Source: Candidatus Auribacterota bacterium (GTDB lineage: Bacteria; Auribacterota; Tritonobacteria; UBA1439). Taken from it: a stretch of 64,000 nt of DNA. Position numbers and translations under genes: made by a program. The number at the start of each line of letters is the position of its first letter. The stretch's first letter is position 1. The notes beneath the pieces are model-generated. The model worked only from the letters and a program-made list of their open reading frames with translations. It made no database searches and was not told the origin of the DNA. This document shows positions 2 to 60,789 of the stretch, in pieces. Location: positions 4,634-68,633 of the forward strand of contig JAPLCX010000108.1 of NCBI GenBank assembly GCA_026392035.1, read 5' to 3'.

Positions 2-631
2 CCGCTGCGTCCCACAGAACCAGGGCCGGAACCCCCGCCTCCGCCACCGGATCTCTCAGGCTACACAAGTGTGATACCAGACCCGCTCAAAACTATCCGC
101 GAGACGCCTGTAGGCGCTCTTGGGATGAAGATTGACCGGAAGCTGTTTGAACGTTTTGAAGAAACCGTAAAGGCCGATCCGGTAGCCCGGGAGAGCTATG
201 AGCGAGGCGATATTAAAGAAGCGGAGGCCTATGTCGTAGCGAATCTGTTCGACAAACCGGAATGGTTCTTCAGCCTTGAAAAATTACGCAAATCAGTGCA
301 TCTGGATCGGCGGATTACTCTACGGGAAATTCTGGCCAAGGTATTCGGCGAGATTGACCGATTCAAAACCAAGGATGAACTCCTGGAGGAGGAACTGTCG
401 AAATTCGTTTCCATCCACAAGCCGGATGCGACACGCATGCCGGTAATACGGCAATTTTTCAAGGCATACCTGACCGATGGCGGTGTCCGGGGCATTGTGG
501 ATTCCCGCGAATTTCCCAGGCTGGCTGATAATCCCAAAGTATCGCTGGCTGACTTGCGATTCCTTGGGGAATGGCGGGATCGTATTCCTGAATATGTGAA
601 GGACTACGTATCTCTGAACCAGTTTGTGTGA
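2..631 (+). CDS. hsdR: Type I restriction enzyme R subunit (HsdR), C-terminal fragment; gene is open to the 5' edge of the window
   Basis: Reading frame is open from nt 2 (no in-frame stop before the listed M at 71). Pro-rich linker then a helical C-terminal domain typical of HsdR C-termini. Sits immediately upstream of an hsdM/hsdS gene. Assignment rests on family resemblance and context only. Confidence 0.5.
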   Translation, partial: PLRPTEPGPEPPPPPPDLSGYTSVIPDPLKTIRETPVGALGMKIDRKLFERFEETVKADPVARESYERGDIKEAEAYVVANLFDKPEWFFSLEKLRKSVHLDRRITLREILAKVFGEIDRFKTKDELLEEELSKFVSIHKPDATRMPVIRQFFKAYLTDGGVRGIVDSREFPRLADNPKVSLADLRFLGEWRDRIPEYVKDYVSLNQFV

Positions 632-1451: not shown

Positions 1452-3929
1452 ATGCTTGATACTGATACAAAAGCGAGAATAGACTCCGCCCGCGATATCC
1501 TGGTGGGCAAGGTGCCTGATCCAAAATCCCAGGTGGAGCAAATCACCATCGCCCTGATCTACAAGTTCATGGACGACATGGACCGCCAGTCGGAGGAACT
1601 GGGCGGCAAAGCGGCTTTCTTCTCCGGTGAGTTCAAGAGATACGCTTGGAATCACCTACTCGATAATCGCCACAGCGGCCATGAGCGGTTACTTCTCTAC
1701 GCCGAAGGCATAGAGAAGATGAATACCAATAAGAACATCCCGCAGCTTTTCCGCGATATCTTCAAGGGCGTCTTTCTTCCCTACCGCGATCCAGAAACGC
1801 TGAATCTTTTTCTTAAAGAGATTAATGGATTCACGTATGATCACAGCGAAAGGCTTGGGGATGCGTTTGAATATCTCCTCTCTGTTCTCGGAAGCCAGGG
1901 AGAAGCCGGACAGTTCCGAACACCGAGGCACATTATTGACTTCATTGTCTCAATCGTCAGCCCTCAGAAAAATGAAACTATCCTCGATCCCGCATGTGGC
2001 ACCGCGGGATTCCTGATCTCATCTTACAAGCATATCCTAATCCAGAACACCAAGGATCGCCCCGGAGATAAACTTACGGCCGACGAACGCGGCAGGTTAA
2101 TGACAAATTTCTGCGGCTATGACATATCGCCCGATATGGTGCGATTGTCCCGCGTAAATATGTACCTGCATAGTTTTGCAAATCCGCGCATCCACGAATA
2201 TGACACATTGACAAGTGAGGAGCGATGGGACGAGCGCTATGACGTGATCCTGGCTAATCCGCCTTTTATGTCACCCAAAGGTGGTATTCGGCCCCATAAT
2301 CGCTTCAGCATCAAAGCTACCCGAAGCGAGGTGCTGTTTGTTGACTATATCGCTGAGCATCTCAACGTCAATGGCCGCGCCGGCATCATCGTGCCGGAGG
2401 GAATTATTTTTCAGTCGCAGAATGCTTATAAGAAACTGCGGAAGATGCTCGTCGAGAATTATCTCTGGTGTGTGGTTTCGCTCCCCGGCGGTTGTTTTAA
2501 TCCTTATTCCGGAGTGAAGACGAGCATCCTCCTCCTCGACAAATCGCTGGCAAAGCGGATAGATGAAATCATGTTTGTGAAGATAGGGGATGATGGGTTT
2601 GATCTCGGCGCGCAGAGGAGGCCGATTGAGGAGAATGATTTGCCCGAGGCACTGGCGCTAATTAAGAAATGGAAGGAAGGTAACAAAGAAGTTCAAGAGG
2701 CGCAAAAGAAATTGGCTCATGCCGTCAGCTGCAAACAGCTCCTTGAATCCGGCGATTGCCACCTCTCCGGCGATCGCTACCGGGATAAGGGTATTCGAGT
2801 CAGCGGCAAGTGGCCGATGGTGCCCATTGGAAAACTGTGTGAGAACATTAAAAATGGCCTCACTCCAAAAGAACATAGAGGACGTGTTGTCTATATTGGG
2901 CTAGAAAATATTGTATCAAACTCCGGTGAGCTTGTCGGAGAATTTGAATCCGAAATTAAAGCAATAAAGAGCACAAAACTGCGTTTTCAGAAAAATAATA
3001 TCTTATATGGCAAACTGCGTCCCAATCTTAATAAGGTTTGGCTTGCGGACCGTGATGGAATTTGCTCCACCGATATAATGGTTTTGCGCTTCAATTCGAT
3101 CCTTGCAAACCCTTCTTTATTTGTACATATCCTTAGGCAAAAGATCTTCAATAACAAAGTGCTCCAGGGACTTGTTGGAGCACAATTGCCAAGAATCAAA
3201 TTCTCATACTTTGTATCTATAGATGTCCCCCTTCCCCCTCTGGAAGTACAGGAGCAGATTGTCGCGGAACTGAACGGCTATCGGAAGATCATCGAAGGCG
3301 CAAAGCAAATCATCGCCAATTACAAACCGACCATTAAGATTAATTCGGCCTGGCCGATAGGTGTTTTGAAAGAGGTGGCAGAGATTAATCGATTAACAAT
3401 TGACCCGGGTGAGAAATATGGCAGCCGAGAATTTTGCTATGTCGACATTTCCTCTGTAGAAAACGGTACCGGGAGAGTTATGTTCGGTAATCGCATAAAA
3501 GGTAGTGAAGCTCCCAGTAGGGCACGCCGTGTCGTCGCCAAAGGAGACGTTTTGCTTTCAACGGTTAGGCCAAACTTGAAAGCATTCGCCTGCCTCGATG
3601 AGGTCCCGGATGATGCTGTTGCTTCAACCGGGTTTGCTGTTTTGACACCTCGTGCAAACAGAGTATTAAGTCGGTTCCTCTGGCATCTACTTTTCGATGA
3701 TTGCGTCCTGGCGCAAATGCTAAGCAGGATGGGGCGAGGTGCATATCCGAGCATAAATCAATCAGATGTTGAATCCCTGAAAGTCCCCCTTCCGCCCCTC
3801 GACATCCAACACCAGATCGTTGACACGCTCGAATCGGAGCGGGCGATAGTAGACGCGAACCGGAAGCTGGTCGAAATGTTCGAGCAAAAGATTCAGGCCA
3901 AGCTCGCAGAAATATGGGGTGAAGAATAG
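1452..3929 (+). CDS. hsdM: Type I R-M methyltransferase-specificity fusion: N6-adenine MTase (HsdM) domain fused in frame to a two-TRD HsdS
   Basis: HsdM motifs: LDPACGTAGFLI (motif I) and LANPPFMSPKGG (NPPF, motif IV). The HsdS part begins near aa 440 (from ~nt 2770) with TRD1. The central conserved repeat is LPPLEVQEQIVAELNGYRKIIEGAKQII. TRD2 and the C-terminal conserved repeat LPPLDIQHQIVDTLESERAIVDANRKLVEMFEQKIQAKLAEIWGE follow. One uninterrupted 825-codon ORF. RBS AAGGAAG upstream. Confidence 0.85.
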   Translation: MLDTDTKARIDSARDILVGKVPDPKSQVEQITIALIYKFMDDMDRQSEELGGKAAFFSGEFKRYAWNHLLDNRHSGHERLLLYAEGIEKMNTNKNIPQLFRDIFKGVFLPYRDPETLNLFLKEINGFTYDHSERLGDAFEYLLSVLGSQGEAGQFRTPRHIIDFIVSIVSPQKNETILDPACGTAGFLISSYKHILIQNTKDRPGDKLTADERGRLMTNFCGYDISPDMVRLSRVNMYLHSFANPRIHEYDTLTSEERWDERYDVILANPPFMSPKGGIRPHNRFSIKATRSEVLFVDYIAEHLNVNGRAGIIVPEGIIFQSQNAYKKLRKMLVENYLWCVVSLPGGCFNPYSGVKTSILLLDKSLAKRIDEIMFVKIGDDGFDLGAQRRPIEENDLPEALALIKKWKEGNKEVQEAQKKLAHAVSCKQLLESGDCHLSGDRYRDKGIRVSGKWPMVPIGKLCENIKNGLTPKEHRGRVVYIGLENIVSNSGELVGEFESEIKAIKSTKLRFQKNNILYGKLRPNLNKVWLADRDGICSTDIMVLRFNSILANPSLFVHILRQKIFNNKVLQGLVGAQLPRIKFSYFVSIDVPLPPLEVQEQIVAELNGYRKIIEGAKQIIANYKPTIKINSAWPIGVLKEVAEINRLTIDPGEKYGSREFCYVDISSVENGTGRVMFGNRIKGSEAPSRARRVVAKGDVLLSTVRPNLKAFACLDEVPDDAVASTGFAVLTPRANRVLSRFLWHLLFDDCVLAQMLSRMGRGAYPSINQSDVESLKVPLPPLDIQHQIVDTLESERAIVDANRKLVEMFEQKIQAKLAEIWGEE

Positions 3930-4094
3930 CAACAGAGCCAAGAGGTGTAATCATTATTATGATGATGATCATTGGACTTAATGTGCTTCAGCCTTCTATG
4001 TGGGGTCTATGAATATAGCGGTTGCCCAGTCCTTAAACAATAGGTGTTATGAAGTTAGAGGCCCCGGCTAGGCAGGATAAAAGAGAATAAGAAT

Positions 4095-5336
4095 ATGTTT
4101 GGACAAAAGTATTTTGAACAACGTATTGGCGACATTTTCCATTTATCTCCAATCCCGTACTTGTGTGGCGATGGTGAGTTATCCAATTCACATGAATCAT
4201 GCAAAGTGCGGTGGGAACTGAATGTTCCTATCACCGGGGAACCACTTCTTGTCATTAGTACTGGCAAAGTGATCACGCCTGATAGTTGGATTACAGCAGA
4301 CCGACAGTTTGTTGAGTGGATATTGACAGGAGCCACAGATGATAAATTATTCTTGATCGCAGCGGAAGCAGTCATATTAAATAGAATGAAGCCTTCATCT
4401 GATGAGCAGCCGAATTATTATTTTAGCCAGTTTCGGCAGATGGATATTTTGCGAAGTTCATCAAAAGCAGTTACTAAATTAGAGGCAATAACGCTTAATT
4501 TTACATTTGAAGGTACAGATAAATTCCAAATAGCAGTCGCTGGAAGGCAAATCCACTTCCGACAAAGCAAGCAGTATAGCGAGTTAAGGGAGCTTATAAA
4601 GATCAAACGGATTGATCGCGCCTTAATTTCTGAGATCCATGTTCCACTACTTGAAGGAGAGACGCTAGAAATGGGGATAGAGATCCTATTCACGCTAGGA
4701 TGGTTAATTTCTTTTCTCACCTTAAACCGAGTTTCAACTCCATTGCTTCGCCTGCTAGACAATGAAACGTTGTGTGGTTGGAGAATTATGGAGCTCCGTT
4801 CTTATCCTTATCATCCTAGTGAAATCATTGATAATAAAATAATCCCAGAAGGCATCAAGAAATGCCTCGAATCAGTATATGATAATTTTGTGAGGTTTAG
4901 TAAATCGCTAGAGCTGGAACGACTCGTAGATATGATTTTGACAGCGTATCAGGAGGGGCTTGTGGAATTCAAAGTGGCTGGGCTTATTTTAGGATATGAA
5001 CTATTTTGTACGTCTTTTCTGAAATATAAAGGCAGACCGCTGACTCTAGAATCTAACATCGAGCAGAAGCTAAATGGTGTAAATAGTTATCTTCGCTTTA
5101 TACCCGCGCATTTGCTTAACGAAAGACTGCGGAAAGATATTCGCAACCCGCTTTTTCACGAAGGATTGATTATTGGGATTGATACAAGGAGTTTATTTCG
5201 ATGGTATAAAGAATATTTGGATCTATTGATAGAAATGCTTTTATTTATTTTAGGCTATAAAGGGAATTTTATTTCACGCGTAGATTATAAGCCCATTCCG
5301 GTCCCGATATCCGCAGGCAAATCCAATATCCCTTGA
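4095..5336 (+). CDS. Hypothetical protein (413 aa); first gene of the AT-rich two-gene island; no recognisable catalytic or NTP-binding motif
   Basis: Long ORF in a markedly AT-richer stretch than the flanks. Codirectional with the SIR2-like gene 70 nt downstream. No Walker A, TIR-like or HEPN-like motif seen. Confidence 0.6.
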   Translation: MFGQKYFEQRIGDIFHLSPIPYLCGDGELSNSHESCKVRWELNVPITGEPLLVISTGKVITPDSWITADRQFVEWILTGATDDKLFLIAAEAVILNRMKPSSDEQPNYYFSQFRQMDILRSSSKAVTKLEAITLNFTFEGTDKFQIAVAGRQIHFRQSKQYSELRELIKIKRIDRALISEIHVPLLEGETLEMGIEILFTLGWLISFLTLNRVSTPLLRLLDNETLCGWRIMELRSYPYHPSEIIDNKIIPEGIKKCLESVYDNFVRFSKSLELERLVDMILTAYQEGLVEFKVAGLILGYELFCTSFLKYKGRPLTLESNIEQKLNGVNSYLRFIPAHLLNERLRKDIRNPLFHEGLIIGIDTRSLFRWYKEYLDLLIEMLLFILGYKGNFISRVDYKPIPVPISAGKSNIP

Positions 5337-5405
5337 TGACAGAAGTGGAACACAGGCTATGATGAATTCATTGAGCGTATATATGTCAGGCAATAATCGC
5401 TTTGC

Positions 5406-6605
5406 ATGAATATGAAAATCATACTTTTTCTGGGATCAGGAGTATCATTTCCGACGGGATTGCCATGTGCGAAAAAGGTAACAGATTCTATTCTCAGCGA
5501 TGAATGGCATAGTTGTAGTGATGGGATATTTCGACCGGGGCCAGAACCGAATCAGTATTTTCGAGACGATAATCTCGCGCCTTGTCTTCAGCAGTTTCTA
5601 AAATTGCTTAAGGAATATGCTGACGCTTATTATTCAAATAAGCATAGGCCAGAGTCGAATTACGAAGATTTATATTACCTCGCGCAGCAGATAGAGGATG
5701 AGGAGTTGGGAGAGATATTTAATCCAGCCATACGGCCTTTTGTCGAAGAGATAAAAAACAAGACTGTAGCATTATGCAGTCGGGAACAGTTTGGTATCAA
5801 AGACTTAACTTTTAGAGAGCTAGGCTGGAAAGCTTGCATATTTATTGAATATGCTTTATGGCAACTTTTGGGTACTAACAATAATCCTGAAGGGATGAAT
5901 CTCATTAAAGAGCTTGCGCTATCGCCAGAAGTTGAAGCTTTAGATATTCTCACTTTGAATCATGACATTCTAGTAGAAAGATTCCTTAGTCGTAACGGAA
6001 TTCAATATGCTGATGGTTTTGGGCTACCTGATGGAGATGTTAGGTTTTTTAAGCCATCGACATATGATGAGGATATCAAGGTTCGCCTTTTCAAACTTCA
6101 TGGCTCAATCAACTGGTTTTGGCTTAGACGCCGTGAGGGTGATATTGCCATTGCTGAATATGGCATCCCAATAAATAATGACATTTGGCACTTTAAAGAT
6201 GCAAAAGGTGAGAACATTGATAACTTGATGGGCGGGCCCAGAATTTTGATAGGGACTTATAACAAGATACCGGATTATGGTCAGGGCATATTTTCAGGAG
6301 TACACCTCAAATTTCAGTCTATTCTCCCAGAACGTGATTTGATGGTTATGTCCGGCTATGGCTGGAATGATAGGGGGATATCTCTCCGCCTTCGAGAATG
6401 GCTTAATTCTTCAATGGATAAACGCCTTTATCTATTGCATCAAAATCCTGAATCAGAAATTCGCGATAAATCAAAAAGTGGAATGTGGCACTGGTATGAG
6501 CCATGGGTAAAAGAGGGAAGGCTTGTGCCAATTAAGCAATGGTTGTGTGATATTAAATTACCTGAACTAATCGGAATAATTAAAACCCATCGAAGTGTGC
6601 ATTAA
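5406..6605 (+). CDS. SIR2-like protein (SIR2_2 / DHS-like NAD-binding family), standalone, 399 aa
   Basis: Rossmann start ILFLGSGVSFPTGLP. Catalytic-pair region LTLNHDILVE (Asn) ... FKLHGSINWF (His), arranged as in ThsA/DSR-type SIR2 domains. Later LMVMSGYGWNDRGI motif. The whole protein is SIR2_2-like. Confidence 0.75.
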   Translation: MNMKIILFLGSGVSFPTGLPCAKKVTDSILSDEWHSCSDGIFRPGPEPNQYFRDDNLAPCLQQFLKLLKEYADAYYSNKHRPESNYEDLYYLAQQIEDEELGEIFNPAIRPFVEEIKNKTVALCSREQFGIKDLTFRELGWKACIFIEYALWQLLGTNNNPEGMNLIKELALSPEVEALDILTLNHDILVERFLSRNGIQYADGFGLPDGDVRFFKPSTYDEDIKVRLFKLHGSINWFWLRRREGDIAIAEYGIPINNDIWHFKDAKGENIDNLMGGPRILIGTYNKIPDYGQGIFSGVHLKFQSILPERDLMVMSGYGWNDRGISLRLREWLNSSMDKRLYLLHQNPESEIRDKSKSGMWHWYEPWVKEGRLVPIKQWLCDIKLPELIGIIKTHRSVH

Positions 6606-6663
6606 CTCCGTTCAACGACTATAAAGATCAAAGAGGCAGCCCCTCTTAAACAGCGTTTAGAAA

Positions 6664-6697
6664 CTTTTGGAGCGCGCAAAACCAAGAGCCTGCGGAG
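6664..6697. repeat. Repeat family R1, copy a (CTTTTGGAGCGCGCAAAACCAAGAGCCTGCGGAG)
   Basis: Near-identical copy at 7183-7217. Seen directly. Confidence 0.6.
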
Positions 6698-6821
6698 CCG
6701 AGGTCAGAGGTTTCTTTTCCTGCACCCGTGGAGCCCGTGGGGGAAATCGAAGGGGATCACTAAAAACAGCGGGAATTTTTTCTCTCATTCTAATCCCAAT
6801 TTTAGCATTGCTGCCCAACCC

Positions 6822-6875
6822 ATCCGCCTTGACTCACGCAAATGTTATTGACCTCATCCATGAACGCTCAACCCC
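6822..6875. repeat. Repeat family R2, copy a (ATCCGCCTTGACTCACGCAAATGTTATTGACCTCATCCATGAACGCTCAACCCC); contains two -35-like hexamers TTGACT/TTGACC
   Basis: Second copy 105 bp downstream (6927-6980). Partial third copy 6981-7006. Confidence 0.6.
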
Positions 6876-6926
6876 GCCGCCCTGCTGCCCATTCCCTCCC
6901 GCATCTATAATTGGAATGCTAAAAAG

Positions 6927-6980
6927 ATCCGCCTTGACTTACGCGAATGTAATTGACCTCACCCCTGAGCGCTCAACCCA
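6927..6980. repeat. Repeat family R2, copy b
   Basis: ATCCGCCTTGACTTACGCGAATGTAATTGACCTCACCCCTGAGCGCTCAACCCA, ~85% identical to copy a. Confidence 0.6.
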
Positions 6981-7182
6981 TCCTCCTTGACTCGCATGAA
7001 AGTTATCGGCATACGCATTTAAGCGTCCACGACACCTCAATAAAGCTTCCCCATCATAAGCGGAGTGGAAGCGGAGAGGGTACGGAGAGGGTGTCTCCCT
7101 GGGTGAGAAAAGAACCCCCCGCACCATCTCACGGTGATGCGGGGGCTTTCCAGAGCCACCGGGGATTATGCCTTTTAATGAG

Positions 7183-7217
7183 CTTTTAGAGCGCGCGAAA
7201 AACCTGGAGCCTGCGGA
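7183..7217. repeat. Repeat family R1, copy b
   Basis: CTTTTAGAGCGCGCGAAAAACCTGGAGCCTGCGGAG; pairs with 6664-6697. Confidence 0.6.
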
Positions 7218-7688
7218 GAGATTCCCGAGACTAAAGTCTCGGCTACGAGTCTCGGCTACCAAGCCCGGCCACGCCCCGGTCCCGGTGGGACTTCCCTTCG
7301 GCGGGGTCCCTACCGGGAGAGGAGCAAAGAAAAACAGCACAGGTCATGAGTCGGAGTCGCAAGGAGCGTGACAGCTATGCTAAGGCACCTCAACTAAGCT
7401 CGGTGACTTCGTCGCGCTCCTTGCTTCACATATGGAGCCAGCGCGGCCTGTCGAGTCGGGAGTGGTATGCTCCGAAGATCCTTCGCTGCGCTCAGGAGCT
7501 CCGCGGGGACGGGCGAGCAATCAATATGCCTTCAGGAACTTGAGATTCCGCTTCCGGGAGCGGTGGATTATGTTAGGCAAGATCACCGGGAACAAGGCCC
7601 CTCGGCTATGCTCGGACTCTCCGCTCGTTCGCAAAAGCTCACTCTCTCCGACTGGTAATGGGGCCTCGATTTGAGCCATTTTTTCATT

Positions 7689-32269: not shown

Positions 32270-33290
32270 CGTGGTCTCTAGACGCTTTATGTAATATACA
32301 GCCGATCAACTGGTTATGATGCAAATTTGCACCTTGCAAGATATACGCCATAACTCTTTCTTTTGAAGCTGGTTGCATAAAGCGTCTACAATATCTATAG
32401 ACGTTTTACGTAACTGCCTGCTGGTGAACGAATTGCAGTGCAAATCGATCACACCGTAAAAATGCAGGAATAAATTTCTCCTCTGCTTCGTCTAATGATA
32501 TGGAGAGTGTAAAATGCCCTCATATGCCAGGAGATATCAATTGGAGAGGTCGCTGATTTACCACGCGTTCAACAGGAGCAATATGCGCGTTCCCATTTTC
32601 CACACGGATGATGATTACCTCCATTTTATGAAGCTATTGAAAAAATATAGCGAGAGGTTCTTTTTAAAAATATACCACTGGGTAATTCTCTCAAACCATT
32701 TTCACATTTTATTTCAACTTAAGGATGCGCTGATGGTTCCAAAAGTTATGGCGGGGCTGGATCGCTCGTACACGCACTATCACCACAGAAATTATGGAAG
32801 CTCCGGCTTCCTCTGGCAGGGCAGGTTCAAACTTCAGGCGGTGCAGAAAGAACGTTACTTGATTGCATGTGGCAGGTACATCGAGAGGAATCCGGTGCGC
32901 GCGGGATGCGTTCAAAATGCGTGGGAATATCCATACAGCAGCGCGCGCTTTTACTGCATGGGGCTATCGGACAACATCACAAGCGAGGATCCCGCATATG
33001 AGGGATCCGGACTCGACCGTGCTCAGAGATCGCAGGGTTATCGCAATTTTCTGCAAGACGATGATGCAGCTGAGGAATCGCTGTTTCGCAATAATGAAGC
33101 ACCTCTGGGTGATGAATGGTTTGTGGCACGCTTGCAGAAAATAGCCGGCCGCTATTATCCTCAGCGAAAAGGAAGATTGCGGAGGGAAGATTGTCGCATG
33201 GCGAGATGATCGCATGGTGATACAGTTGAAGAGCGTTATGGAATGAGAGGTGATACCATGACACTGCAACTGGTTTTGCAATATGTCTAG
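32270..33290 (+). mobile_element. IS200/IS605-family-like single-ORF element: hairpin-rich left end, HUH Y1 transposase, hairpin-containing right end
   Basis: Perfect 14-bp inverted repeat CTAGACGCTTTATG / CATAAAGCGTCTAC (32279-32292 / 32376-32389). Further palindromes at 32321-32332, 32385-32403 and 32432-32442. A hairpin at 33264-33280 follows the gene. Confidence 0.55.
32514..33209 (+). CDS. HUH-superfamily Y1 tyrosine transposase (IS200-like / REP-associated RAYT-like), 231 aa
   Basis: HUH motif NHFHILFQL. Catalytic-Tyr region YTHYHHRNYGSSGFLWQGRFKLQAVQ. Conserved ERNPVRAG and WEYPYSS segments are typical of this family. Confidence 0.65.
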   Translation: MPSYARRYQLERSLIYHAFNRSNMRVPIFHTDDDYLHFMKLLKKYSERFFLKIYHWVILSNHFHILFQLKDALMVPKVMAGLDRSYTHYHHRNYGSSGFLWQGRFKLQAVQKERYLIACGRYIERNPVRAGCVQNAWEYPYSSARFYCMGLSDNITSEDPAYEGSGLDRAQRSQGYRNFLQDDDAAEESLFRNNEAPLGDEWFVARLQKIAGRYYPQRKGRLRREDCRMAR

Positions 33291-54784: not shown

Positions 54785-55500
54785 TGCGCCCCCGCCCCGC
54801 GGTCCGCCTGCGGCGTGGCCGACGTCCCCGTGCGGTTCACCGTATCTCTCTCTTCCAGCACACTCCGGCCCGTGAGCACCAGCGAATCCCCGGACCGCAT
54901 GCCGCCGGAAAGGACCGCACCGTATCCGTTGCGCGACTCGAGCCTGACGCCGGCCTTCATTGCCCTTCCGTCGCATATCTTCCAGACGCTGTACCCGCCG
55001 CCTGAAACATCGAGCACTTCGTTCGGCACCACCAGCGCGCCGGGGAGCGTCCGGGTGCGCGCGTAGACCACGAGCGGCGATTCCGCCGAGGCGGGCGGGT
55101 CGTTGAATTCCACCCCCACCGGGAACATCCCCGTGATGACGTCCAATTCCCGGCCGACCGATACGACCCTCCCGCAGGGGGTTCCGCCGTCCGCGAAGCG
55201 GATCTCCTGCCCCTCCGCGAGTTTTTCCTTGATATCCGCGGTGACGAAACCGTCCGCCGCCCTGCCCGATGCGCAGGTCACCGTGAACTTCGTGTACACC
55301 GGAATATCCTTCGCCCTGACCTCCTCGACCGTCACCGGCTTGCCGCGCCTGTCCCACTCGGAATGGAAACTGACGATCGGGCGGCCGCGGCTGGTGTTCA
55401 CTGCGCCAATCTTCATGCACACGGCGATGATGCCGACGGTGATCATTGCCGCGTAGAATCGCGCCTTACGACTAATTCTTCGTGCCGTTTTTCTTTTCAT
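54781..55500 (-). CDS. Short efflux RND periplasmic adaptor (MFP)
   Basis: Basic N-terminus plus TM anchor (KARFYAAMITVGIIAV). Beta-barrel/lipoyl-like regions. Lies between the OMF and RND genes. Confidence 0.65.
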   Translation of the reverse strand: MKRKTARRISRKARFYAAMITVGIIAVCMKIGAVNTSRGRPIVSFHSEWDRRGKPVTVEEVRAKDIPVYTKFTVTCASGRAADGFVTADIKEKLAEGQEIRFADGGTPCGRVVSVGRELDVITGMFPVGVEFNDPPASAESPLVVYARTRTLPGALVVPNEVLDVSGGGYSVWKICDGRAMKAGVRLESRNGYGAVLSGGMRSGDSLVLTGRSVLEERDTVNRTGTSATPQADRGAGAQ

Positions 55501-56815
55501 CGTAGTGCCCCGCAATCAGCTTCTCCATCCTCGCCAAAGTGGTATTGATGCTGAACAGCGTCATCTCCTTGTTGATCCTCTGGTTCGTGAGGAGGAGTTC
55601 CGCGTCGTTCAGATCGGTCAGCGACGCCTGGCCCGACGCGAACATATCCTGGGTCTGCCTGAACGACTCCTCGGCAAGACCAACCGCCTTGACGTTCGCG
55701 CCGAGGTTCTCGTTGTACTGTCGGTACTCCAAAGAGGCCTTCTTGAGCTCCAACAGGAACTTCTTCTCGAACTGCTTTGTCCTGAGACCCGCGATCTCCC
55801 TGTCGGCGCGCGCCTGCCTGAGTTGCGCTTCCTTCTTGCCCCCCTCCCAGATCGGCACGTCGATCTTGAACCCCGCGAAGGCGTACCGGTCCAGGCCATG
55901 GCCGATCCCGAAGGCGTGGTCGTCCCGGCCGCCGAAATAATCCAAGGTGGTAAAGGCGGATATGGTGGGTAGGAAGGCCGCGTATTTGCTTCTGACCTTC
56001 GCGTCGGCCGCCTCCGCGGTCTTGGCTAAGCCCTTCAAAAACGGCTCGTATTTGTGCATCGCGTCGACAAGCGTGTCGTAGTCATACGCGTCGTACTTCT
56101 CACTGAAATTCTCGACAATCTCTATCGTGCAGGAATAGTCCACGTCGATGAGCTTCTTCAACGTCTCCAGGGCCGCGTCGTACTGGGTCCGCGCCGCGTT
56201 GACCGTGGGCACGCGCACGGCGACCTCCGTGTCCATCTTGAGTATCTCGTAGGTGGAGCTGCGGCCGCCGAACGAGCGCCGATCGAGTAGTTTCTTATTC
56301 TGGATGGCGTTTGCGTACGACTCCTCGGTGATATACAGGGTTTTCCTGGCGAGCAGCCCGCCATAATACGCAAGCTTGGCCGCATAGATGATCTCCTGCC
56401 TGCCCGCCTCGCGGTTGTAGCTGCTGGCCTCGACCGCCTTCCTCGCCGCCTCGACCGCGTACATGACCCTGCCGAACGACCAGATGAGCTGGGAGGCGGT
56501 TACCCCGTACAGGTCGTAGTAGTCGTTCAAGCCCGTCGCGCTCGGGGAGTCGATGGTATAAGCCCAGCCGGTCTGCCCGCTCAAATTGGGAAGCAGGCCT
56601 GCGCGCTCTTCCCTGGAAAAGCCTTTCGCCTTGGCGACTTCGCTGTCTCTGATCTTCAGCTCCTCGCTGGTCTCCACGGCGCGCGCGATGGTCTCGGCGA
56701 GGCCCAGGCGCAGCACGGCGTGCTCCTCCGCGGAGACCGGGGTCACACCGTGAATGGCGTATGCGAGCGCGCCGGCCAGGATCGCGGCGGGGAGCAGCGG
56801 CCCTTTCATTTTCAT
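55472..56815 (-). CDS. TolC-family outer-membrane efflux protein
   Basis: Signal peptide. Duplicated TolC repeat architecture. Confidence 0.8.
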   Translation of the reverse strand: MKMKGPLLPAAILAGALAYAIHGVTPVSAEEHAVLRLGLAETIARAVETSEELKIRDSEVAKAKGFSREERAGLLPNLSGQTGWAYTIDSPSATGLNDYYDLYGVTASQLIWSFGRVMYAVEAARKAVEASSYNREAGRQEIIYAAKLAYYGGLLARKTLYITEESYANAIQNKKLLDRRSFGGRSSTYEILKMDTEVAVRVPTVNAARTQYDAALETLKKLIDVDYSCTIEIVENFSEKYDAYDYDTLVDAMHKYEPFLKGLAKTAEAADAKVRSKYAAFLPTISAFTTLDYFGGRDDHAFGIGHGLDRYAFAGFKIDVPIWEGGKKEAQLRQARADREIAGLRTKQFEKKFLLELKKASLEYRQYNENLGANVKAVGLAEESFRQTQDMFASGQASLTDLNDAELLLTNQRINKEMTLFSINTTLARMEKLIAGHYDEKKNGTKN

Positions 56816-57974: not shown

Positions 57975-58721
57975 TTGACTTTGATAGACGTTATGGATAA
58001 TGTACTTGCTAATCTGAACAGAAAGATTGGAGAAGCGATTAGAACCTATTGGCTCACGCGGGAGGGCCAGACTAAAAGGCAGAAAGAAGCAGGACGAGTG
58101 GATCAGGGGGCTCGAAGCGCCGTAACGGACGGCGCCCAAATGGATGGTTTTATCTCCCTGATTACTGAAATACTTTGCAACGCTGGAATTGATTCTCGGC
58201 ACATATTCAGGAAAACATGCATAGAATTACCCGGCTTTTTCAGGCCCACAAAGGAGTGGGATCTCCTTGTAGTAAGGGATGGGCAATTGATATTGGCTCT
58301 CGAAGCGAAATCTCAAGTAGTCCCCTCGTTTGGGAATAACTTCAACAATCGAACCGAGAAAGCTATGGGGAGCGCTCTGGACTTGTGGACTGCCTTTAGA
58401 GAAGGCGCCTTCAATAAAACGGTTAAGCCATGGTTAGGGTATCTTTTTCTCCTAGAGGATTGTCCTCAATCTAGGCATGCCGTAAAAGTGCGCGAACCAC
58501 ATTTTGAAGTATTCCCCGAATTCAAAAATGCCTCTTATGGCAAGAGATATGAGCTATTCTGCCGCAAGCTGGTACGAGAAAGGCATTATTCTGCTACTGC
58601 CTTCTTAATGGCATCAAGAGCTGGTGGACTCAAAGGAAACTACGAAGAACCGTCAAAAGATTTAACCTTTGAGCTATTTGCCCGTTCGCTGATCGGCCAA
58701 GTAACTGCTTTTGGGAAATAG
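57975..58721 (+). CDS. Putative type II restriction endonuclease (PD-(D/E)xK fold), 248 aa
   Basis: Candidate catalytic core ...EWDLLVV...LILALEAKSQVV (D ... E-A-K, EcoRI-like spacing). Gene sits 8 nt upstream of a DNA MTase in a low-GC island. No family-level match could be made by eye. Confidence 0.45.
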   Translation: MTLIDVMDNVLANLNRKIGEAIRTYWLTREGQTKRQKEAGRVDQGARSAVTDGAQMDGFISLITEILCNAGIDSRHIFRKTCIELPGFFRPTKEWDLLVVRDGQLILALEAKSQVVPSFGNNFNNRTEKAMGSALDLWTAFREGAFNKTVKPWLGYLFLLEDCPQSRHAVKVREPHFEVFPEFKNASYGKRYELFCRKLVRERHYSATAFLMASRAGGLKGNYEEPSKDLTFELFARSLIGQVTAFGK

Positions 58722-58729
58722 GCTTAATC

Positions 58730-59677
58730 ATGATACAAGCCACAAGTCTAGAGAATATAGTTACAACACATCGCCTTATCCAAGGTGATGCCAGAGAAAT
58801 GTCATATATCCCGAACGAATCAATCCATCTTGTGATTACATCACCACCTTACTGGACATTAAAGAGATACAATGAAAATCCAAGACAGTTAGGGCATGTT
58901 TCCGGATACGAACAATTTCTTAATGAGCTACAAAAGGTATGGACCGAGGTTTATAGAGTGCTTGTTCCCGGAAGCAGGCTAGTTTGCGTGATCGGGGACG
59001 TATGCCTTTCCAGAAAGAAGTTTGGGAGGCATGTAGTTGTTCCTCTGCATGCTGATGTTTGCGTGATGTGCAGGAAGATTGGCTTTGACAATCTTAATCC
59101 TATCATCTGGCATAAAATTTCGAACGCTGCTTTTGAAGCGAACGACGGATCAAAATTTTTAGGCAAACCATATGAGCCTAATGCGATTATTAAAAACGAT
59201 ATCGAGTTTATTCTGATGCAAAGGAAGCCGGGGGGCTATAGGAAGCCCACGGAAGAGCAACGCCGGCTAAGCAAAATAGGCAAGAACGAATTCAACGAAT
59301 GGTTCCGTCAGTTCTGCACCTTAACGGGAGCTTCTACAAAAAATCATCCAGCACCTTTCCCTTTAGAGTTAGCTAATCGTTTGGTGCGGATGTTTTCATT
59401 TTGGGGGGATACGGTCCTAGATCCTTTCTGTGGGAGCGGTACTACAATGCTGGCTGCCATGAGGTGTCACCGCAATAGCATAGGGGTTGAAATAGATAGA
59501 GAGTATTGCCGTATGGCCGCGCAGCGATTGATTAAGGAAAATCAGGATTTTTTCTCTAAAACCCGTTTGGAGTTCAAAAAGCAGATTAATAGTAAAGACC
59601 AGGGCTTGATTCTCCATGAGGATAAAGCTTTATATGTGGCGCACAAGAAAAAACAAAAAATGAAAGCCGCATCATAA
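58730..59677 (+). CDS. Beta-class amino-DNA methyltransferase (motif IV SPPY before motif I DPFCGSGTT); likely N4-cytosine (or N6-adenine)
   Basis: VITSPPYW (motif IV) at aa ~38 and VLDPFCGSGTT (motif I) at aa ~263. This is the ParB/beta-group order typical of type II N4C/N6A MTases. Confidence 0.85.
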   Translation: MIQATSLENIVTTHRLIQGDAREMSYIPNESIHLVITSPPYWTLKRYNENPRQLGHVSGYEQFLNELQKVWTEVYRVLVPGSRLVCVIGDVCLSRKKFGRHVVVPLHADVCVMCRKIGFDNLNPIIWHKISNAAFEANDGSKFLGKPYEPNAIIKNDIEFILMQRKPGGYRKPTEEQRRLSKIGKNEFNEWFRQFCTLTGASTKNHPAPFPLELANRLVRMFSFWGDTVLDPFCGSGTTMLAAMRCHRNSIGVEIDREYCRMAAQRLIKENQDFFSKTRLEFKKQINSKDQGLILHEDKALYVAHKKKQKMKAAS

Positions 59678-60186: not shown

Positions 60187-60789
60187 ATGGAATACAAAAT
60201 AAATAGAGACGGGCTTTTAACGGAGATGGGGATCTGGAACGGGTTTCTTGGCCGTTCGGTGAGATTGATTGCCTGCGGCGGCACAGGGCTTACTCTTCTG
60301 GGAGTGAAAGATTCAACAAAAGACATAGATTTGATGGTGCCAGACGAATGGGAGCATAGTTATCTCCTGAGCATTTTGAAGCAGTTCGGTTACAAGCAGG
60401 TAACCGGTTATGGATGGGCTAGAGGCGGGGGATTCGTGTTCGATCTCTTCCGTGGAAACAGAATACACACCACGGAATTGCTGGAATCCCCTCTGGAAAA
60501 GGGCAATCATCTCATGTTCAAGGAATACAGCCGGATCTATCTTGGAATTCTCAATTACTATGACCTGATTATAAGCAAACTGTTCCGTGGCACATCCGTT
60601 GACTTTGATGACTGCGTGGCCTTAGTGCGTGTCAAACATCGCGAGGTTGATTTTGGCAGGCTATGTAATCGCTATCGAGATACTGCCGCATATGATGTGT
60701 CCGAGATAAATGTGTTGAAGAACTTGGACACTTTCATTCACCTGATTAGAAAAGAGGGGCTCTACAATGACAACACGCTCACTTCGTGA
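60187..60789 (+). CDS. Nucleotidyltransferase-fold protein (Pol-beta superfamily minimal NTase), 200 aa
   Basis: IACGGTGLTLLGVKDSTKDIDLMV fits the hG[GS]x9-13[DE]hDL NTase signature. Confidence 0.55.
   Translation: MEYKINRDGLLTEMGIWNGFLGRSVRLIACGGTGLTLLGVKDSTKDIDLMVPDEWEHSYLLSILKQFGYKQVTGYGWARGGGFVFDLFRGNRIHTTELLESPLEKGNHLMFKEYSRIYLGILNYYDLIISKLFRGTSVDFDDCVALVRVKHREVDFGRLCNRYRDTAAYDVSEINVLKNLDTFIHLIRKEGLYNDNTLTS

Follow-up and report, generated by a model that had tools for sequence, protein, structure and literature searches.

The AT-rich 2.7 kb in the analysed stretch of 64 kb (the window) probably consists of two independent single-gene modules of the abortive-infection type, stacked 3' of a Type I-like restriction-modification (R-M) operon in a defence island. 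[quoted passage not shown] The original prediction had read the pair as one system, in which a sensor without recognisable signature (gene 1) would license NAD+ depletion by the SIR2 protein. The island itself, with its two codirectional ORFs, was recovered exactly as described; the sensor-effector pairing was not supported.

The lowest-GC 2.5 kb of the whole window coincided with the two genes (z ~ -3), with GC contents of 0.395 (gene 1) and 0.399 (gene 2) versus 0.557 for the window, which supports horizontal acquisition as the probable origin of the stretch. No tRNA, tmRNA or Rfam element that could mark an integration site was found between positions 1 and 14000. There was also no sign of the island being a prophage, as scans of viral contigs gave no relatives of gene 1 and only distant, partial SIR2 matches. 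The two ORFs, both on the + strand, are separated by a spacer of 69 nt in which the terminator scan detected no terminator-like site, and promoter and terminator scans, which performed no better than on shuffled sequences, were given no weight as evidence. Because of the equally low GC, the same strand, the short gap and the lack of a terminator-like site between them, the two genes may be co-transcribed in this genome and may have been acquired together.

The defence-island setting beside a Type I-like R-M locus was borne out by the genes upstream, all on the + strand. A helicase-type R subunit was indeed present, as the proposed hsdR, with only its C-terminal fragment inside the window (2-631; the ORF is cut by the window start). 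This fragment, which had no Pfam match, aligned in tblastn over 90% of its length, at 45% identity, with the C-terminal end of a DEAD/DEAH helicase family protein of 849 aa, which on E. coli IncF plasmids is encoded ahead of an N-6 DNA methylase. It is followed by an ORF6N-domain gene (744-1316; Pfam ORF6N, 1.1e-33) and by a fused, Type I-like hsdM-hsdS gene of 825 aa (1452-3929) with one N6_Mtase (1.1e-49) and two Methylase_S domains (1.7e-25) in Pfam, and matches to MTase_I (1.9e-92) and Specificity_I (1.4e-49) in PADLOC; both had been predicted correctly. The ORF6N gene also corresponds to the PADLOC candidate PDC-S05 (1.4e-55).

Gene 2 exceeded the cut-off of the Pfam SIR2_2 family (PF13289; 29.0 bits for a cut-off of 24.5, E = 1.3e-6), and a precomputed match to the same family was present in most of its homologues. 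In PADLOC, its best match was Aga_SIR2 (4.9e-16), followed by SIR2 (2.8e-12). The motifs named in the original prediction were found at codons 5433-5465 (GSGVSFPTGLP), 5952-5966 (TLNHD) and 6093-6107 (KLHGS), and the Rossmann glycines G10 and G12, the N185-H186-D187 triplet and the K230-L-H232-G-S234 stretch were invariant over an alignment of 22 sequences, in agreement with a SIR2_2 protein of the NADase type with a conserved Asn/His pair. N185 (5958-5960) and H232 (6099-6101) are, from established knowledge of SIR2 enzymes, taken here to be the catalytic residues. The best profile match in the PDB was the SIR2 subunit of SIR2-HerA (8w9l, 5.5e-19). The AlphaFold2 model (pLDDT 90.5) gave the same system as the best Foldseek match (8sub_B, E = 2.6e-13) over approximately 400 residues, i.e. 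the full length, so that all 399 residues are accounted for by the SIR2 fold. The closest structural relatives were the defence NADases SIR2-HerA, DSR2, ThsA and KomC, with identities to solved SIR2 proteins of about 15-17%. From sequence and model, gene 2 is thus predicted to hydrolyse NAD+. A tblastn search of plasmids with gene 2 returned nothing down to the threshold of E = 1e-10.

Gene 1 itself had no match in Pfam, PADLOC, NCBIfam or PHROGs scans, nor in a PDB sequence-profile search. The fold predicted from its sequence was neither Ago nor HerA; the fold search identified a Hcp/tail-tube-like beta-barrel (residues ~1-232) and an all-alpha, up-down helical bundle matching solved HEPN domains (residues ~250-385). 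The gene was not devoid of signatures either, since it possessed a HEPN Rx4H motif, R350-N-P-L-F-H355 (RNPLFH, codons 5142-5159, + strand), which was invariant across 18 homologues and retained in a Clostridium plasmid relative of 28% identity. Over 88 family members, with identities down to ~17%, R350, N351 and H355 were at least 90% conserved. The Rx4H loop was the lone low-confidence stretch of the model (pLDDT < 50 at residues 350-358). Among the 88 relatives, recurrent Pfam matches were weak or sub-threshold and concerned HEPN_RiboL-PSP (6/88, best 1.3e-4) and HEPN_Apea (3/88, 9.7e-4), together with weak matches, lacking in the window protein, to ApeA_NTD1 (2/88, 7.8e-5), DUF3644 (1/88) and HEPN_MAE_28990 (1/88); beyond HEPN types, ApeA_NTD1 and DUF3644, no other family recurred. 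Sequence conservation and structure prediction together indicate that gene 1 most likely has a remote ApeA-like architecture with a predicted HEPN effector, rather than being a pure sensor. Its family is uncharacterised and comprises ~300 clusters of beta-barrel + HEPN proteins that escape the present models of Pfam, NCBIfam, PHROGs and PADLOC.

Members of both families recurred beside or within operons of modification-based defence (Type I R-M, BREX, Hma). SIR2 relatives of at least 52% identity followed hsdR (loci L012 and L013) or hsdM (L014, L015 and an ENA contig), or lay between pglX and pglZ with stop and start codons that overlap or adjoin (L016 and L120; 4-nt overlap with pglX and 3-nt gap to pglZ). 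A more distant relative (L063) was separated from hsdR by 1 nt, and Type I genes were found near the SIR2 gene in L023, L063, L075, L084, L085, L088, L093 and L095. In the wider SIR2 family, R-M genes were nearby in only ~10% of 80 genome loci, and integrases and transposases occurred among the neighbours. Relatives of gene 1 followed an SNF2-PglZ-BrxA fusion-p122 set (L004, L007-L010, L098, L100, L101) or BrxL (L002, L003, L099), and one adjoined an HmaC-like/DUF1156 methyltransferase/helicase set (L001). As the BREX-linked relatives form a single clade (72-92% identity), the association of gene 1 with BREX reflects few independent events. Several further lineages had no recognisable R-M or BREX genes close by (L005, L011, L097, L102, L123).

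These contexts raise the possibility of a closer coupling, in which the SIR2 protein, the HEPN protein or both would be kept latent by the intact R-M or BREX complex and would fire once a phage anti-restriction protein disables that complex, like PrrC with EcoprrI. All five known contexts of the SIR2 relatives of at least 52% identity were Type I R-M or BREX operons, and the in-operon placement between pglX and pglZ, the 1-nt gap to hsdR in L063 and the position of gene 1 relatives at the 3' end of BREX-type operons are consistent with it. PrrC and PARIS provide precedents (10.1101/2024.01.29.577857; PMC12839542). Defences are enriched among the genes that reside within BREX, DISARM and Type I R-M loci, PrrC being the model case (10.1101/2024.01.29.577857), and HEPN and Schlafen RNases adjoining BREX are described as its backup effectors (PMC12839542, section 35). 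However, ~90% of the 80 genome SIR2 loci and several gene 1 lineages were without recognisable R-M or BREX neighbours, so that both proteins are presumably able to work alone, and genes often share a defence island without being functionally coupled. That the SIR2 protein, and perhaps the HEPN protein too, would be a dedicated guard, expressed together with the proteins of a Type I R-M or BREX system and set free to degrade NAD+ (or RNA), is a tentative and rather unlikely proposal. To our knowledge, and in the literature searched, an NADase effector working by the logic of PrrC has not been described.

The original reading of the two genes as one abortive-infection system, with gene 1 sensing infection and licensing NAD+ depletion, fared worse when their distribution was examined. 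No gene 1 HMM match was found within 8 kb on either side of the SIR2 gene in any of the 80 genome loci, none of the five metagenome loci with a SIR2 gene of at least 52% identity (L012-L016) had a gene 1 relative within 8 kb, and no gene 1-like gene was present in L120. Conversely, none of the 17 gene 1 loci (L001-L011, L097-L102) had a match to the SIR2 HMM, and the conserved linkage of gene 1 to this SIR2 that a joint system would imply was thus not observed. The SIR2 family also had no conserved partner, either by clustering of the three neighbouring genes on each side or in a Pfam/PADLOC census of its 114 nearest neighbours. At the DNA level, the SIR2 gene belongs to a self-contained cassette (5362-6697, + strand) composed of a 44-nt leader, the ORF and ~92 nt of 3' flank, which was 90% identical over 1338 nt to L012:7959-9294 and to L013 (blastn). 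In both of these loci the cassette lies directly after hsdR and gene 1 is absent; its homology starts 26 nt past the stop of gene 1 (5336), which places a DNA boundary between the two genes. Given the lack of co-occurrence, this boundary and the partnerless SIR2 family, the two genes are read as independent.

What speaks for a joint system is the local arrangement (same orientation, 69-nt gap, common GC of 0.40, no intervening terminator-like site) and, for a modular version in which gene 1 would be combined with a swappable downstream effector, the genes found 3' of two gene 1 relatives, a TIR gene in L004 and a caspase gene in L102, whose common 245-aa C-terminal domain hints at effector swapping. 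Against this, the shared domain was unlike the SIR2 family (hhalign probability 0.2%) and the arrangement was limited to these two loci, and the TIR and caspase proteins were consequently rejected as analogues of the window SIR2. On the 3' side, the other gene 1 relatives had defence genes of unrelated kinds (GmrSD, Abi_alpha, a PLD-like gene) or none. Moreover, with its HEPN domain, gene 1 already carries a predicted effector of its own. A two-gene system, modular or not, is accordingly very unlikely. A role outside defence, with gene 2 as a regulatory deacylase or ADP-ribosyltransferase and gene 1 as the toxin in a toxin-antitoxin or addiction module, both being passive cargo of mobile DNA, could be suggested by the integrases and transposases near SIR2 genes, but is very unlikely given that the matching Pfam family is SIR2_2 and not canonical Sir2, that the nearest structural matches are NADases of defence systems, that gene 1 has no conserved antitoxin-like partner in the window, and that both families occur among bona fide defence genes.

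Considered as two separate modules, the genes resemble known systems in different respects. Like gene 1, ApeA is a single polypeptide resident in defence islands, with non-catalytic N-terminal domain(s) and a C-terminal HEPN domain bearing an R..H motif; it cleaves tRNA anticodon loops upon ligand triggering, through HEPN dimers in large oligomers (10.64898/2026.01.26.701840). It differs in size (residue numbers past 550 are cited for Ec2ApeA, against 413 residues in gene 1) and in its N-terminal part, for which a catenin-like N-terminal and a PafA-like Mid domain are reported in Ec2ApeA in place of a Hcp/tail-tube-like beta-barrel. Neither of the ApeA models (ApeA_NTD1, HEPN_Apea) matched the window protein. 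PrrC and RloC are likewise RNase-type suicide effectors within or next to Type I R-M operons, an arrangement that serves as the model for a backup firing once restriction is neutralised (10.1101/2024.01.29.577857); gene 1, however, lacks an ABC-ATPase or P-loop N-domain (it has the beta-barrel, and no ATPase Pfam match), and no homology with either was detected. In following PglZ-BrxA-type genes or BrxL, gene 1 relatives also recall the auxiliary effectors of BREX and BREX-related systems, for which a recurrent presence of stand-alone HEPN proteins and other suicide effectors directly adjoining or within BREX/BR loci is described (PMC12839542, section 35), although the host system in the window is Type I-like R-M and not BREX. 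The survey of BREX effectors names only nucleases, with no occurrence of SIR2 (PMC12839542), and the SIR2 genes embedded between pglX and pglZ in L016 and L120 are absent from it.

For gene 2, the SIR2 subunit of SIR2-HerA (Nezha / GAO_19) was the best match by both profile and fold, and is of the same size and the same NADase-type SIR2_2 family. In S. thermophilus, SIR2-HerA has been seen inserted in or beside R/M loci (PMC11514479). The window SIR2, in contrast, has no HerA: it is flanked by gene 1, which gave no HerA-type fold match, and by non-coding DNA. HerA was also lacking among the recurrent neighbours in 61 loci of the family and among the families occurring at least twice in the 114 neighbours. 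SPARSA, Thoeris ThsA and DSR1/DSR2 share with gene 2 the SIR2_2 NADase module with its Asn/His pair, ThsA (E = 2e-5) and DSR2 being lower-ranked Foldseek matches. Gene 2 nevertheless differs from the short pAgo SIR2-APAZ system (SPARSA) in lacking APAZ and a pAgo neighbour, since the fold of gene 1 is Hcp-like + HEPN and not MID/PIWI; from Thoeris, as no ThsB is present and neither window protein had a SLOG or TIR Pfam match; and from DSR1/2, as its 399 residues leave out the large C-terminal sensor.

As two independent modules, the genes would act as accessory or 'backup' abortive-infection effectors of modification-based defence loci, neither depending on the other. The beta-barrel of gene 1 would be the sensing or regulatory part, and its HEPN domain would, once triggered, dimerise and cut RNA, probably tRNA or mRNA, by means of R350 and H355. 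Gene 2 would hydrolyse NAD+ through N185 and H232 when triggered. The RNase and NADase activities, the triggers and an anti-phage phenotype of both genes are what we infer from these domains, motifs and contexts.

The architecture that had been proposed as a new SIR2 system hence splits into two separable modules, and the two-gene system is therefore not to be carried forward. The beta-barrel + HEPN family is now testable as a single-gene defence, with R350 and H355 as the obvious residues to mutate, and gene 2 belongs to a HerA-less SIR2 clade that is repeatedly built into operons of Type I R-M and BREX. If either gene were functionally coupled to the modification system, the 'backup effector' principle of PrrC would extend to NAD+ depletion, and such a coupling would help account for the immunity that BREX and R-M loci retain when anti-restriction factors attack them.

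At the right edge of the island, comparison with the flank of the cassette in L012 (blastn, repeat finder) showed ~520 bp more in the window, in the form of an extra segment at 6698-7180 (no strand assigned). This segment, without tRNA or Rfam match, is flanked by a direct repeat (6660-6697 and 7181-7218) and contains two 63-nt repeats.

The two codirectional forward-strand genes of the island, gene 1 (4095-5336; 413 aa) and gene 2 (5406-6605; 399 aa), lay exactly at the coordinates of the original prediction, separated by a 69-nt spacer. Their GC contents were 0.395 and 0.399, respectively, for a window value of 0.557, and the AT-richness previously noted by eye was confirmed, a 2.5-kb segment from near 4100 having the lowest GC in the 64 kb (z about -3). 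Upstream of gene 1 were a fused N6-methylase and double-TRD specificity gene (1452-3929), an ORF6N gene (744-1316), and an ORF running off the window start (2-631) with a C-terminus-like match to DEAD/DEAH helicase proteins. The label hsdR given earlier to this last ORF is reasonable but only partly verified: the ORF had no Pfam match and was 45% identical to the C-terminus of plasmid-borne DEAD/DEAH helicase proteins encoded ahead of N-6 methylases. The ORF6N gene, which separates the R subunit gene from hsdM-S, matched the PADLOC defence candidate PDC-S05 (1.4e-55) and is a third accessory gene of this R-M locus. Past gene 2, a stretch of about 1.3 kb lacking any convincing gene preceded housekeeping-type genes (encoding a spermidine-synthase-like membrane protein, an MBL-rhodanese protein and a GIY-YIG protein), placing the right end of the island near 6.7-7.2 kb. 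A segment of about 520 bp (6698-7180) was extra relative to the 90%-identical flank in the metagenome locus L012. A direct repeat flanked it (6660-6697 and 7181-7218), and inside it a pair of 63-nt repeats sharing 84% identity (6822-6884, 6927-6989) each carried a TTGAC-type box; no tRNA, Rfam match or convincing ORF was found in 6660-7218, and the segment could be a small insertion or duplication.

Gene 2 encodes a defence-type SIR2, as originally called, given its Pfam and PADLOC matches, conserved motifs and SIR2-HerA-like fold. It matched Pfam SIR2_2 (29 bits; threshold 24.5) and the PADLOC models Aga_SIR2 (4.9e-16) and SIR2 (2.8e-12), and the expected motifs translated as claimed (GSGVSFPTGLP, 5433-5465; TLNHD, 5952-5966; KLHGS, 6093-6107). 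Its homologues, about 390-400 aa long, numbered over 320 across many phyla; G10, G12, N185-H-D, K-L-H232-G-S and an SGYGWxD motif were invariant in a 22-sequence alignment. Profile searches of the PDB returned only SIR2 subunits of SIR2-HerA systems (8w9l, 5.5e-19, then 8yhx and 8j4u), 8w9l being identified as such in PMC11472057, and over its full length the confident AF2 model (pLDDT 90.5) best matched the SIR2-HerA SIR2 of E. coli (E 2.6e-13), with DSR2, ThsA and KomC ranking next. Despite this closeness to SIR2-HerA by profile and fold, no HerA gene adjoined gene 2, no pAgo/APAZ or Thoeris-type SLOG domain or TIR protein accompanied it, and it lacked the long sensor domain of the DSR proteins.

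Gene 1 had been described as fitting no family, and its protein indeed matched no Pfam, PADLOC, NCBIfam or PHROGs model, and 5.8 billion clusters yielded only 18 close homologues; an invariant HEPN-type motif, R350-N-P-L-F-H355 (codons 5142-5159), had nevertheless been overlooked in it. The catalytic signature of HEPN RNases is R-x4-H, typically R-N-x3-H (see also 10.64898/2026.02.22.705581). An exhaustive profile search widened the family to 297 representatives, and R350, N351 and H355 each kept a conservation of at least 90% across 88 members, the most distant of them about 17% identical. The AF2 model (pLDDT 88.4, pTM 0.87; below 50 in the motif loop at 350-358) comprised a beta-rich domain (about 1-232) and a C-terminal helical bundle (about 250-385). 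Among the 88 members, the Pfam families matched more than once were HEPN_RiboL-PSP (6), HEPN_Apea (3) and ApeA_NTD1 (2), with single matches to DUF3644 and HEPN_MAE_28990; the HEPN matches were sub-threshold and confined to relatives of the window protein. The motif, the two-domain model and these matches together make gene 1 a probable remote protein of the ApeA-like kind, in which a HEPN domain at the C-terminus follows non-catalytic N-terminal domain(s), and hence a predicted effector in its own right. The ApeA models gave no match in the window protein and sub-threshold ones in relatives, and the PrrC ATPase domain was lacking. An 11-residue loop present in all close homologues was missing from the window protein at residues about 145-146 (alignment A1, columns 152-162); the protein is probably functional, judging from its sequence, because every invariant residue is kept.

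The best-supported reading is of a defence island where a Type I-like R-M system has probably gained, behind it, two single-gene effectors of the abortive-infection type. Gene 1 would dimerise via its HEPN domain, so creating a composite R350/H355 site, and would cut RNA once its N-terminal domain or the interdomain pocket is triggered; the analogy is with ApeA and DARNA, both of which cut tRNA anticodon loops (10.64898/2026.01.26.701840; 10.64898/2026.02.22.705581). Gene 2 would hydrolyse NAD+ via N185/H232 and may do so in oligomeric form, as in SIR2-HerA, whose SIR2 is a dodecamer (PMC11472057).

For SIR2 relatives sharing 52% or more identity with gene 2, all known contexts were modification-based defence loci. 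The gene followed hsdM-S and gene 1 in the window, hsdR (itself preceded by a Schlafen/AlbA_2-type gene) in L012/L013 and hsdM in L014/L015 and an ENA contig, and lay within a BREX operon between pglX and pglZ in L016 and L120 (4-nt overlap, 3-nt gap). A 48%-identical relative (L121/L122) adjoined a transposase and a 165-aa gene of no assigned kind. In the wider family, Type I genes occurred within 8 kb in L023, L063, L075, L084, L085, L088, L093 and L095, with SIR2 1 nt past hsdR in L063. Since Type I genes were near only about 10% of wider-family loci, the link is strong within the clade of gene 2 but sporadic beyond it. The order Schlafen/AlbA_2-like gene, hsdR, SIR2 recurred in L012 (2925-9200) and L063 (1898-9200; an hsdM-like gene also upstream), whose SIR2 proteins, 86% and 26% identical to the window's, are related only distantly, which suggests a recurrent multi-effector Type I R-M arrangement. 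Functional coupling in this clade, with SIR2 guarding the R-M or BREX complex, is plausible but of low probability. Among genes lying inside BREX, DISARM and Type I R-M loci, defences are enriched, and PrrC is almost confined to Type I R-M (10.1101/2024.01.29.577857); stand-alone RNases of the HEPN and Schlafen types have been described as backup suicidal effectors beside BREX and related systems (PMC12839542, section 35), and SIR2-HerA has been found inserted in R/M loci (PMC11514479).

Gene 1 relatives fell into about seven lineages. Members of a 72-92%-identical clade followed SNF2-PglZ-BrxA fusion-p122 blocks (L004, L007-L010, L098, L100, L101; BrxA by PADLOC, 5.3e-71) or BrxL (L002, L003, L099). 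Elsewhere, relatives lay beside an HmaC-like gene, a DUF1156 methylase and a helicase (L001), after Type I-like R-M (the window), or among HNH, Abi_alpha, MNT, caspase or phage-plasmid genes (L005, L011, L097, L102, L123). The last is on a 203-kb Clostridium botulinum plasmid (p1, NZ_CP063966), where a 28%-identical relative (55136-56395) with intact RNPLFH sat amid many small hypothetical genes, in the vicinity of genes for a HicB antitoxin and an RNA 2'-phosphotransferase. The gene directly 3' varied (111-aa ORF, TIR fusion, caspase fusion, GmrSD, Abi_alpha, PLD-like); all were defence-flavoured and none conserved. The TIR and caspase proteins (L004:6134-7342 and L102:1202-2728) look like effector swapping on a common module. 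The 111-aa ORF, 3 nt past gene 1 relatives of one 72-92%-identical clade (L002:3749-4084, L004:5789-6124, L009:4765-5100, L097:3271-3515, L098:2368-2703), had no Pfam or PADLOC match and was not present in the window; it may encode a small partner or regulator.

Neighbourhood conservation, the check proposed with the original prediction, did not uphold the pairing of gene 1 with SIR2. None of the 17 gene 1 loci outside the window (L001-L011, L097-L102) held a SIR2 family member. Conversely, SIR2 relatives were collected from 80 genome loci and the metagenome loci L012-L016 and L120-L122; the gene 1 HMM found nothing within 8 kb either side of SIR2 in the genome loci and L012-L016, and L120-L122 had no gene 1-like gene. 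Nor did the SIR2 family show any conserved partner: clustering of three genes on either side of SIR2 gave no family in more than 3 of 61 loci, and a Pfam/PADLOC census of the 114 nearest neighbours was headed by DEAD helicases (4), integrases (3), transposases (3), reverse transcriptases and Fic. The SIR2 cassette (5362-6697: a 44-nt leader, the ORF and about 92 nt of 3' flank) was 90% identical in DNA to L012/L013, where it lies 55 nt past an unrelated hsdR without gene 1, the homology beginning 26 nt past the gene 1 stop codon. Genes 1 and 2 are separable modules. That they form one sensor-effector pair is very improbable: they have the same strand and GC and a short gap without a terminator-like site, but they co-occur in none of the other loci covered, and the boundary of the independently found cassette falls between them.

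Neither gene fits any defined system. Their kinds are known, as HEPN single-protein defence and SIR2 NADase effector, of which both are predicted variants, and so is the setting, as accessory genes of modification systems. SIR2-in-BREX and SIR2-after-hsd arrangements were not found in the literature searched, the BREX survey (PMC12839542) containing 0 occurrences of SIR2. Overall interest is moderate, because embedded candidates of this sort number hundreds.

Elsewhere in the window, a second AT-rich patch (57975-59677; GC about 0.436) was a complete Type II R-M system, consisting of an XhoI-family endonuclease (PF04555, 7.5e-90) and then an N6_N4 methyltransferase (3.1e-42), and was followed by a DUF6036 nucleotidyltransferase-like gene (60187-60789). 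An IS200-like Y1 (HUH) transposase or REP-associated-type gene (32514-33209; PF01797, 2e-12) adjoined a local GC dip at about 31.7 kb.
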